64,000 bases of DNA. It comes from an uncultured Bacteriovoracaceae bacterium (GTDB taxonomy: Bacteria > Bdellovibrionota > Bacteriovoracia > Bacteriovoracales > Bacteriovoracaceae). Of this stretch, positions 57,677 through 60,600 are shown in pieces; position 1 is the first letter of the stretch, and every line of letters starts with the position of its first letter. The stretch is taken from the NCBI GenBank assembly GCA_964012805.1, contig CAXGUD010000007.1:1-64000 (forward strand), read 5' to 3'. The position numbers were made by a program, and so were the translations under genes. Below the pieces are notes generated by a model that ran no database searches, was not told the DNA's origin, and saw only the letters and a list, made by a program, of their open reading frames with translations.

Positions 57677-60600
57677 TTATCTCGACTTTCCAACACACCA
57701 TCCATGAATACTACACTTTCTAGCCCCATCACATTCGCAGTCATTTGCGCATTGATTTGATCCACGTTTATTTTTCGCCTCATCATGATAGTAATTTTTT
57801 GATGTACAGCTTGGAGGTTTTGGCTTTGGTTTAGGCTTCGGTTTCCGAGCTTCTCCTTGACACCATTTCCACGGAGAGCAAGTTCTTTTCCCATCACATT
57901 CACAGTCATTATCACATTGATTCGGCCCTCTTTTATTTGATGACTCATTATGTTTATAATCAGGACTTTTACAGTTCTTAGGATTAGGCTTAGGCTTAGG
58001 CTTAGGCTTTAGTTTATCCTTTTCTTTTGGTTTCCGGGCTTCACCTTCACACCATCCCCAAGGGGAACAGGTCCTCTTTCCATCACATTCGCAATTATTG
58101 TTGCATTGATTAGGGCCCTTTTTATTTTTAGCTTCATCATGCTTATAGTTAGGACTTTTACAGTTTATGGGTTCAGGCTTAGGCTTAGGTTTTGGTTTTG
58201 GTTTTGGTTTTGGTTCCCTTGCCTCCCCTTCACACCAGTTATAAGGAGAACATGTCCTCTTACCGTCGCAATCGCAATCATTATCACAACGGTTTGAACC
58301 TTTTTTATTTTTAGCTTCATCATGTTTATAGTCTGGGCTCTTACAGTTTACTGGCTCAGGTTTTGGCTTAGTTTCCGGTTTAGGTTTAGGCTCTCGTGCT
58401 TCCCCTTCACACCAATTATAGGGAGAACACGTTCTTTTTCCGTCACAATCGCAGTCATTATCACAACGATTTGAGCCTTTTTTATTTTTAGCTTCGTCAT
58501 GTTTATAGTCTGGACTCTTACAGTTTATAGGTTCTGGCTTCGGCTTTGGCTTTGGCTTTGGTTTAGGTTTAGGATCTCTTGCTTCACCTTCACACCAATT
58601 CCATACAGAGCAAGTCCTCTTTCCATCACATTGACAATCATTACTACAAGTATTCGGACCTGATGGATTTTTTGATTCATCCACATTGTAATTGGGATCA
58701 GTACATGAAAGATCTTTATCAACATTGATATTTTTATTGGGATCAGTTTCTTCCTTAGTATCTAGTGGTAAAATTTCAGACCGACCTATAAAAGGACCCT
58801 TATGATAGAGGTTATAATTTAAATCGTGAAAGAATCTTTCTCCATCGCTATTATTAAATATTCCTACGAAAAAATTATCTGAATCAACTAAAAGAGTTGT
58901 TTCTAAATTTACCATACCTCCTGATGAGGTTTGTATAGTTTTTTGTGTCGTCCAGGTTTGACCATCACTACTTGTTGCAAGTGAAACTTTATAGACTTGG
59001 CTTTGATTTGTCGTTTGATTCGTTTCTTGATTTTTAACTTTTATTAAGCGGTTACTGGCAGTTGCAAAGAAGTTAAAATGATAAAGGCCTTGCATTTTAA
59101 AAAGGTGAATTGAGTTTTTATAATTTCCATATTGACTTTGAACCTTTCTGGAAAGACCAAAAGGGAACGTATTTTTTATATTTTCACCACCTATGGGAAG
59201 AAGATGACCCTTCAAAACTTTCCCATTATTAATTCCTAAAATCTTCTCACAAGTTCCGATTCTATGGTGTCCATAACCAGATCCCACAGGGCTACATTTT
59301 CCTTCATATTTAGCTGGGCATTTTGGGTAGGCACATCCAACAAACCCTGTTTCCTTTAAATTAACTCCTGTCTGCATCTGTCCATTAAAAAAACAGCTCT
59401 CACATTTATTTTGGCAGGCGATGTTTATACCACCAAATTTGGGTTCAAGGCAGGTCGTGAGTCCTACATTGGAGGTAGGATTATCTCTATGGATGAAGTA
59501 TAAGACCTTAGTTTGTTTTATTTTCGTTACCTCTTTAACCCTATTTTCAAACCATTCTTTAGAAATAGGCTGATCTTCTCTTTCCGGAAAAGCAAGAGAT
59601 GAAAGGTTATATCCTCCAAGGAAAATAGTCCCATTGACTTTTAAATTACCATCAACTTCCAGTTTCTCACTACCAGACTTTGGAATTCCAAATGATACAC
59701 CGGGTTTTATTTGAAAAGAGTTTTCATTACCCATTTTAATTTTTTCTCTTAAGCCTCTTGGCGAGACTGTTTCAAAATACCCTCCTCTTAAAAGGTAGAA
59801 CTGGTCATCTTGATTTGTTTGGAAATCTGAAAAAAGTGAGAGAGTTTCACTTTGTTCTTGAATATCAATGCCAATTTTTAGATCTAAATTTTTTCTTGCT
59901 TCTTTTTCACTTTCAGAATCTAATCCACCCCTTTTTAATGAAATCTTAGGTATCGAACTGAAGCTTCCGCCTTGTTCATCATTAATTAAAATATTTTTTG
60001 GGCTTCCTTTTAAAATTTTAATTCTTTTTATAGAGGCATCAGATTTAAAGTGTTTATCAGTAAGAGAAGATTTTAAAATATGATAAGTTTCAACGGCTCC
60101 TTCAGAAATTTTTGAAAGAGTAATCGATCCATTTTGTATTTTACTATTTGTAACAGAGTCGTTTTTAAGATTATTACCTGATATTGATCCAGTATTTATT
60201 TTGCTTGAATCAATGGCATTATTTTCAATATCTTTAACTTTAATTTCCAATATTTTAGGTTGCCACTTCTTTATGGATAAATTAAAGGATAAAATAGACT
60301 GGCAGTCATCATTACATTCGGCTTGATCCTTTTCTTCTTCTTTGAGGGGAAGAGTATCAGAAAAATCAAGGAGTTTGGAGGTCTCTTTTTCTATTTGCTC
60401 GAAGCTATAATCACCTTTTTGAGGTAAAATGGTGCCCTCTCTTCCCATAAAATTGGAAACTTTACCTGTATTTTCTATTTTTTGCCATTTTTTACCGTCT
60501 GAAATGGCCCAGTCTCCTTCATACCAGTTCTCTTTTTTATCTCTATCTAAAACTGATGCTTTACCAGATTTTGTAACAATAAAGTAATGACCACGGGGAG

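Follow-up and report, generated by a model that had tools for sequence, protein, structure and literature searches.

Six scytovirin domains at the C terminus of a predicted MAT-like fibre protein from an uncultured Bacteriovoracaceae bacterium

What are the six cysteine-rich repeats that close a long, fibre-like protein of an uncultured Bacteriovoracaceae bacterium, and what might such a protein hold on to? The gene, here gene B (P0001), is an intact open reading frame of 1,100 residues on the minus strand (57677-60979) of the window, by which we mean the whole 64,000-nucleotide stretch analysed (contig CAXGUD010000007.1, positions 1 to 64,000). The original prediction had assigned the repeats to the hevein/CBM18 kind, or possibly to a new disulfide-rich family. 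We find that the six repeats are scytovirin (SVN) domains by family and by fold. The reading that we favour, with moderate confidence, places these lectin domains on Pro-Lys linkers at the C terminus of a predicted trimeric MAT-like surface fibre, where they would likely provide a multivalent grip, most likely on mannose-rich glycans of cells or particles.

A pattern scan confirmed the layout of the array as first described. Six modules, each of 43 residues with six cysteines, fill the last third of the open reading frame, are separated by Pro-Lys-rich linkers of 18, 16, 18, 20 and 12 residues, and end in CS-x-[WYH]-x-WC-x-G (CSVWNWCEG, CSPYNWCEG twice, CSPWGWCEG, CSPWKWCQG and CSIHGWCVG). Pairwise identity among them ranges from 24 to 43 of 43 positions. 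Modules 2 and 3 encode the same protein with 15 nucleotide differences, all silent, from which it follows that the array did not arise by duplication during assembly and that purifying selection acts on it. A contig from a sequencing run of a separate study matches 57989-59652 with one difference, a contig of the possible source study matches 57400-60157 with none, and a metagenome relative (L115), 85% identical, also has six modules. An assembly artefact is thereby ruled out, on the strength of the silent differences, the independent contig and the six-module relative. Where their labels could be read, the datasets holding the sequence were marine or seawater metagenomes; no RNA dataset was among the matches listed.

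A Pfam search with the whole gene B protein returned one strong family, scytovirin PF20888 (E 4.5e-60, 200.6 bits against a cut-off of 27), and all nine aligned modules matched this profile, the first module with 42.7 bits. Scytovirin was also the sole PDB sequence match at E values up to 10 (E 6e-19 for the array, 7.6e-31 for a module profile). The AlphaFold model of module 1 (predicted local distance difference test, pLDDT, 81) was aligned by Foldseek with scytovirin 2qsk over 42 columns, with a template modelling (TM) score of 0.82, a root mean square deviation (r.m.s.d.) of 1.5 Å and E 1.1e-4; of 41 matches this was the only one below E 0.001. Modules and scytovirin are about 50% identical, and the core Y-x-x-[DN]E-x-x-N...G-x-N-x-C is invariant. 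Three further searches added little: a wide VIA-align search with the module, uninformative for so small a domain, gave three knottin-like chains only (Z 2.0-2.6) and did not recover scytovirin, the ESM Atlas held no usable match for the array, and NCBIfam returned nothing.

Hevein/CBM18 domains (Chitin_bind_1, PF00187) resemble these modules in being small, disulfide-rich and tandemly repeated and in having a C-S-x-W-x-W-C β-hairpin. Their signature is an adjacent CC before S-x-[WY]-G together with the chitin-binding type-1 cysteine pattern. The gene B protein has no CC dipeptide anywhere, its cysteines are spaced differently, and the type-1 pattern does not match. Chitin_bind_1 gave no match at E up to 1 for the whole protein or 10 for the modules, in searches where HMMER filters drop weak matches, and none in a genome-wide search that had no positive control; no hevein chain stood among the PDB sequence matches of the array or module profile. 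The structural comparison with hevein that had been proposed gave scytovirin as the best fold, with the hevein-type peptides 1mmc (Ac-AMP2, rank 21) and 2n1s (rank 23) lying amid knottins at E 4.8 (TM 0.35-0.37, 22-23 columns). On the model, the likeness to hevein is that of a common C-terminal Cys-stabilized hairpin, not of the whole fold. The resemblance first noticed therefore survives as a weak superposition of this hairpin on Ac-AMP2 over 22 columns, and the hevein family assignment does not. Nor is the family new, being Pfam PF20888 already, or an essentially eukaryotic one caught in a bacterium, SVN being widespread in Myxococcota and Nostoc.

The remainder of gene B looks like a fibre, and the position of the array at a fibre tip, proposed at the outset, is supported by the predicted stalk and head and by kinship of the base domain. 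The placement in Bacteriovoracaceae agrees with a same-genus and a same-family genome, which carry loci identical to ones labelled Bacteriovoracales and Bacteriovoracaceae. Matches to the base domain occur in 45 of 201 genomes from the order, and one genome often has several long open reading frames with it. All 16 full-length base-domain relatives, obtained from 20 fetched regions, have a lipobox-like motif, and 11 of the 16 have an S74 motif at the end. The repeat stalk matches phage tail-fibre families. The head model aligned with the C-terminal domain of BclA (Z 10.3, r.m.s.d. 2.9, 128 residues aligned) and with C1q (Z 9.6), members of the C1q and TNF groups occupying the top rows of the structure search; the Bdellovibrio MAT tips Bd2734 and Bd2439 gave Z 7.1 and 6.5. 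For the stalk and the head the ESM Atlas offered only leads under 0.9, one of them a C1q cluster. At another fibre locus (L085, G022:C1:5000-17000), three genes of the family stand in tandem; in one of them the base domain is duplicated and the frame contains a stop.

MAT fibres combine a conserved base with a variable adhesive tip (Caulton et al. 2024, PMC10769870). Their anchoring is stated to be unknown in the discussion of that paper, and counts of MAT proteins exist for Peredibacter as well (PMC13147790). Like the non-S74, TNF-tip class of Bdellovibrio bacteriovorus (Bd2439, Bd2734; PMC10769870), gene B encodes what appears to be an exported Bdellovibrionota fibre of some 1,000 residues with a conserved base and a variable, lectin-like tip. 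The two further resemble each other in the predicted TNF/C1q-like head and in the swapping of tips between paralogues. The capping-loop motif, V-G-G/N-x-x-x-P-x-x-x-L, is clear in the neighbouring gene A and aligned but degenerate, with no PDB match, in gene B. They differ in that lectin domains are added here after or inside the head rather than replacing it, and in the presence of an A-B gene pair. Moreover, the Bdellovibrio signal peptide is followed by a conserved β-rich N-terminal domain of ~130 residues; gene B is without the counterpart found in its relatives, which may not equal the Bdellovibrio domain. Judged by sequence and model, the gene B protein seems to behave like a non-S74 MAT, yet without one defining feature, the N-terminal domain. 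BclA and other trimeric fibres with C1q/TNF heads (1WCK, 9H38) come closest to the head in structure (Z 10.1-10.3) at 7-17% identity, but they have a collagen stalk that is absent here, and the Cys-rich insert and lectin tail are found only here.

The modules are not plain copies of scytovirin from Scytonema varium (PF20888; 2QSK, 2QT4, 2JMV). The two share the fold, 52% identity in the structural alignment, tandem domains on a Pro-rich linker, the four core cysteines, Tyr6 and an aromatic residue at 37. Scytovirin, however, is a soluble cyanobacterial monomer of 95 residues with two domains, whereas six domains are built here into a 1,100-residue fibre protein of the Bdellovibrionota whose ligand is a prediction; it also has Cys7 where the modules have Cys1 and Cys24, and they have mostly His in place of its Trp8 and an extra aromatic at 35. 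Its disulfides are 20-32 and 26-38 within a domain and 7-55 between domains (PMC3407925, from which we take the pairing). Cys20, Cys26, Cys32 and Cys38 are kept in 6/6 modules. Cys7 occurs in none, so the inter-domain Cys7-Cys55 bond, a trait of the two-domain type member that is missing in many PF20888 members, is absent, and Cys1 and Cys24 are added. Among 95 unique modules from the GTDB loci, the word-seeded protein search and the orthologues, caught by a pattern that includes Y-x-x-DE (modules without this motif, such as the tandem repeats P0006, P0007 and P0024, fall outside it), 37 have both cysteines, 57 neither and one a single cysteine. On a module tree of 44 columns, cysteine columns included, one change suffices for this label; we dropped the covariation as strong proof of a disulfide, the tree showing a single evolutionary event, which also makes the Fisher p-value computed for it too favourable. 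The pattern is consistent with a Cys1-Cys24 staple that would make each bead self-contained. The discordant module belongs to P0028, in which a MurC-like protein is joined to a segment nearly identical to array modules 5-6 and which is probably a chimeric metagenome contig. P0006, P0007 and P0024 have another extra Cys pair, near position 7 and after the hairpin, and form a third stapling variant, possibly eukaryotic.

Scytovirin binds Man-α1-2-Man-α1-6-Man-α1-6-Man, the tetramannose arm of Man8/Man9, and showed no affinity for chitin when tested by pull-down (PMC5422485), which moves the expected ligand from N-acetylglucosamine (GlcNAc) to mannose. Mannose-rich glycan is our best guess for these variant modules, by analogy, because of their scytovirin ancestry and the ricin-B and MVL lectin fusions found elsewhere. 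Three aromatic residues per domain are said to bind the sugar (PMC8004682); we took these to be Tyr6, Trp8 and Phe37 from the passage of that review and the PDB chain sequence. Tyr6 is present, and position 37 is Trp, in 6/6 modules. Dissociation constants of 18 µM for the tetramannoside and 4 µM for the nonamannoside (PMC9034974) make a single site weak enough for an array to matter. The multivalent, disulfide-rich array at a fibre end that had been predicted was rightly recognized, and it is probably glycan-binding.

On the favoured reading, the protein would be exported by Sec and then oxidized in the periplasm, as its signal and the 46 cysteines downstream of it suggest. Disulfides Cys20-Cys32 and Cys26-Cys38 would form as in scytovirin, with Cys1-Cys24 in place of Cys7-Cys55 so that each bead could fold alone. 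Trimerization would take place through the C1q/TNF head, to judge from its fold, and the fibre would be displayed at the surface, probably with the lipoprotein encoded upstream. Six beads per chain would trail beyond the head on extended, cationic Pro-Lys spacers, and avidity from 6 to 18 weak sites could convert micromolar binding into firm attachment to a densely glycosylated surface. Candidate targets are polysaccharides rich in mannose on bacterial prey, or the high-mannose glycans that marine eukaryotic microbes carry. HMG-CoA reductase, a marker of predators, is present in the genome.

Several observations weigh against this account. The head model has a mean pLDDT of only 51.9, with just the β-sandwich strands reaching 70-90, and its Foldseek E-values are about 4e-4, with carbohydrate-binding modules close behind. 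Residues 1-740 of gene B have no significant PDB sequence match. The domain that follows the lipobox in the 16 relatives and in gene A is missing from gene B (E 5e-14 for A, 2.8 for B). A predatory lifestyle is a supposition for this genome, which has one PBP4-type peptidase gene and only two loci of the fibre family, and in which an S74 fibre was looked for and not found. Within the modules, scytovirin's Trp8 is replaced by His in five of six and by Val in the first, a change that may have altered the mannose site. Finally, position 35, a Ser in scytovirin, reads Trp, Tyr, Tyr, Trp, Trp and His from module 1 to 6, and Trp or Tyr in five of the six restores a hevein-like S-x-W-x-W face.

How might a fibre without a lipobox be held at the cell? 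The stop codon of gene A, a lipoprotein paralogue with the same stalk and a plain head, lies 5 bases before the start of gene B, and all four PDB matches of gene A, made through the capping-loop motif, are to Bdellovibrio fibre tips (best E 0.0037). A second fibre-family locus of the same genome spans contigs C36 and C28, which overlap by 132 bases with 128 matches; its gene B has no SVN array, and the Cys-rich loop of its head contains an inserted ricin-B lectin instead. A further insert in its neck looks β/γ-crystallin-like by eye and has no Pfam match. A plain-headed gene A stands directly upstream of an insert-bearing gene B in 4/4 loci, two in this genome and two in G002, a lipobox is present in the three A genes with an intact start, and all four B genes are without both lipobox and N-terminal domain. 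Stalk lengths between anchor motifs agree within pairs (A/B): 78/78 here, 78/78 in G002:C168, 178/about 184 at the second locus of this genome, with B counted across the contig break, and at least 249/328 in G002:C13, whose A gene runs off the end of the contig. In the neck, A and B of one locus are 32-42% identical and A genes of different loci 42-45%; since partners within a locus are less alike than A genes across loci, the match in stalk length does not reflect recent copying. Both the pairing and this match rest on two genomes with two loci each. The arrangement suggests, at the level of sequence, that A and B co-assemble as a two-chain fibre with A supplying the lipid anchor. A fuller version, which we advance tentatively, is a heterotrimer in which lipoprotein A anchors and B bears exchangeable lectin payloads, the self-stapled scytovirin array gripping high-mannose glycans, possibly on eukaryotic microbes rather than Gram-negative prey. 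Orthologues of the fibre carry three (G002), four (P0003) and six (L115) modules.

The ligand itself could be a different one. Hevein binds (GlcNAc)n through a Ser and three aromatic residues, the third being Tyr30. Five of the six modules present the Ser and two aromatics, position 35 included, and their hairpin superposes on Ac-AMP2, so that a six-Cys variant switched to GlcNAc polymers such as chitin or peptidoglycan, through a hevein-like Ser-x-Trp-x-Trp face, in line with the ligand of the original prediction, deserves consideration. In the wider set, Trp, Phe or Tyr occupies position 35 in 18/37 six-Cys modules against 15/57 others, and Trp8 is kept in 9/37 against 37/57. The hevein-like primary structure of scytovirin has also been noted (PMC8004682). 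We nevertheless consider this switch unlikely: the modules offer no equivalent of hevein's third aromatic, scytovirin failed to bind chitin (PMC5422485), and the G002 orthologue, which keeps His8, has Ala or Ser at 35 in 3/3 modules, so this residue is dispensable for the fibre role.

About as unlikely, and marginally more so, is that gene B yields no anchored adhesin and its product is a released, soluble lectin fibre, serving as an agglutinin, a cross-linker of biofilm or particles, or a decoy against viruses or grazers. The signal looks cleavable, all four B genes are without lipobox and N-terminal anchoring domain, and most other SVN proteins found are small and secreted. The fibre architecture and kinship to surface MAT fibres argue the other way, as does the lipoprotein of matching stalk length with which gene B is always paired. 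We regard it as improbable that the partner of the modules is not a glycan but a protein or an anionic surface, with disulfide fold and Lys-rich linkers making a generic sticky scaffold. The excess of basic residues in the array (Lys+Arg 76, Asp+Glu 52), a weak fold likeness to protein-binding knottins and the loss of Trp8 would fit such a scaffold, but the identity to scytovirin and the invariant core speak for a lectin, and the fusion partners elsewhere are lectin domains. That the bacterium gained true hevein/CBM18 domains has next to no probability: beyond the common C-S-x-W-G-W-C-x-G hairpin motif, the absent CC and type-1 pattern, Chitin_bind_1 match and hevein PDB match, and a TM score of 0.35 against 0.82 for scytovirin, refute it at family level.

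Table 1. Features of the fibre genes; coordinates are window positions unless a locus is named.
Feature	Position	Strand	Basis
Gene A: 693-residue lipoprotein paralogue, with lipobox, family N-terminal β domain, same stalk and plain head; candidate anchor partner	60985..63066	-	open reading frame, lipobox scan, alignment
Gene B: MAT-like fibre protein with C-terminal scytovirin array	57677..60979	-	open reading frame, Pfam and fold matches
Hydrophobic N-terminal signal without lipobox, residues 1-39, likely of Sec/signal-peptidase-I type	60863..60979	-	hydropathy and lipobox scan; cleavage inferred
Conserved base domain, ~residues 41-210, common to S74-terminated and other Bacteriovoracaceae fibres	60350..60859	-	sequence matches
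Repeat stalk resembling phage tail fibres, residues 239-317; anchor motifs 78 residues apart	60029..60265	-	family matches
Predicted C1q/TNF-like head, ~residues 492-731, with 8-Cys insert Cys510-Cys577 of low model confidence	58787..59506	-	model and fold search
Scytovirin module 1, residues 759-801	58577..58705	-	pattern scan, AlphaFold model, Foldseek, Pfam
Scytovirin module 2, residues 820-862	58394..58522	-	pattern scan, Pfam
Scytovirin module 3, residues 879-921, protein-identical to module 2	58217..58345	-	pattern scan
Scytovirin module 4, residues 940-982	58034..58162	-	pattern scan, Pfam
Scytovirin module 5, residues 1003-1045	57845..57973	-	pattern scan, Pfam
Scytovirin module 6, residues 1058-1100, C-terminal	57680..57808	-	pattern scan, Pfam
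Second A-B fibre locus	L097:1085-3247 and L096:3-4219 (contigs C28, C36)	-	gene B split by contig break

Scytovirin domains are rare in the phylum. PF20888 was found in 3 of 401 of its genomes and in 3 of 41 close relatives, and this genome holds one copy of the array; a related-locus search of genomes with a two-module query found nothing. Across GTDB species genomes, an exact DNA pattern picked out 33 loci: 24 from Myxococcota, 4 from Nostoc, 3 labelled Pseudomonadota and 2 from Bdellovibrionota. This tally goes by titles and tree labels, the pattern misses variants, and many of the Myxococcaceae matches are close kin. Most of the encoded proteins are small, secreted and built with one or two modules, and many also have a ricin-B domain, which was fused to the scytovirin domain in both Myxococcota fusions scanned. 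A word-seeded protein search gave 40 proteins, all precomputed as PF20888, with P0003 the sole fibre among them.

Several of these proteins are of interest in themselves. A conserved myxobacterial secreted protein (L013, L016, L017, L019, L024, L025, L027, L029, L032, L036, L038, L041-L044) joins a four-Cys scytovirin module through a polyproline linker to ricin-B, and its database name is only RICIN domain-containing; L013 is labelled Comamonas and groups with Myxococcaceae in the tree. P0009, of 569 residues, combines the high-mannose lectin domain MVL (PF12151) with three scytovirin modules. Four Nostoc loci (L015, L022, L026, L040) encode full-length scytovirin orthologues in which a signal peptide precedes the N terminus of the mature protein, so that scytovirin proper is likely secreted. 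In G002, a single six-Cys module with a loop insertion lies at the N terminus of a protein of at least 2,049 residues with SpvB, FG-GAP and RHS matches (L010:3-6149, minus strand; G002:C124), a possible placement for target recognition in what would be a lectin-targeted RHS protein.

Elsewhere in the window, a CheA-like/Hpt membrane-bound histidine kinase (55655-57631, minus strand) lies directly downstream of gene B. We excluded it as a part of the fibre system, the kinase not being at the same place in G002. A bacterial microcompartment locus (47359-54770, plus strand), partly syntenic in G002, encodes an aldehyde dehydrogenase, a PduS/RnfC-like protein, two BMC-domain proteins, two EutN/CcmL proteins, a DeoC aldolase, a class II aldolase and a triosephosphate isomerase; it resembles what we take to be the sugar-phosphate-utilizing type.

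The novelty lies in a new context that combines two known kinds; the domain itself is already in Pfam. Within the titles and abstract openings searched, a coverage that most subscription papers fall outside, we found no report of scytovirin domains in fibres or in predatory bacteria. Nor does the word scytovirin occur in the searchable supplements of Caulton et al. (PMC10769870), whose tables of further MAT tip domains lie outside the text searched and may bear on this point. Reviews call scytovirin a unique cyanobacterial protein with a novel fold, and the passages available do not address its natural job. Twenty years of work on it have dealt with its antiviral and antifungal action as a lectin. 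The six-copy array, the lectin-swapped paralogue and a family centred on Myxococcota give it a testable natural context, the capture of cell-surface glycans by predators. For the Bdellovibrionota, the MAT concept gains a new type of tip and, possibly, a two-chain assembly, and the self-contained six-Cys modules with their varied surface aromatics are natural scytovirin variants. If the two-chain reading is true, the scytovirin family would be mainly one of predatory-bacterium lectins, giving an antiviral lectin its first natural role and offering natural variants of higher valency.

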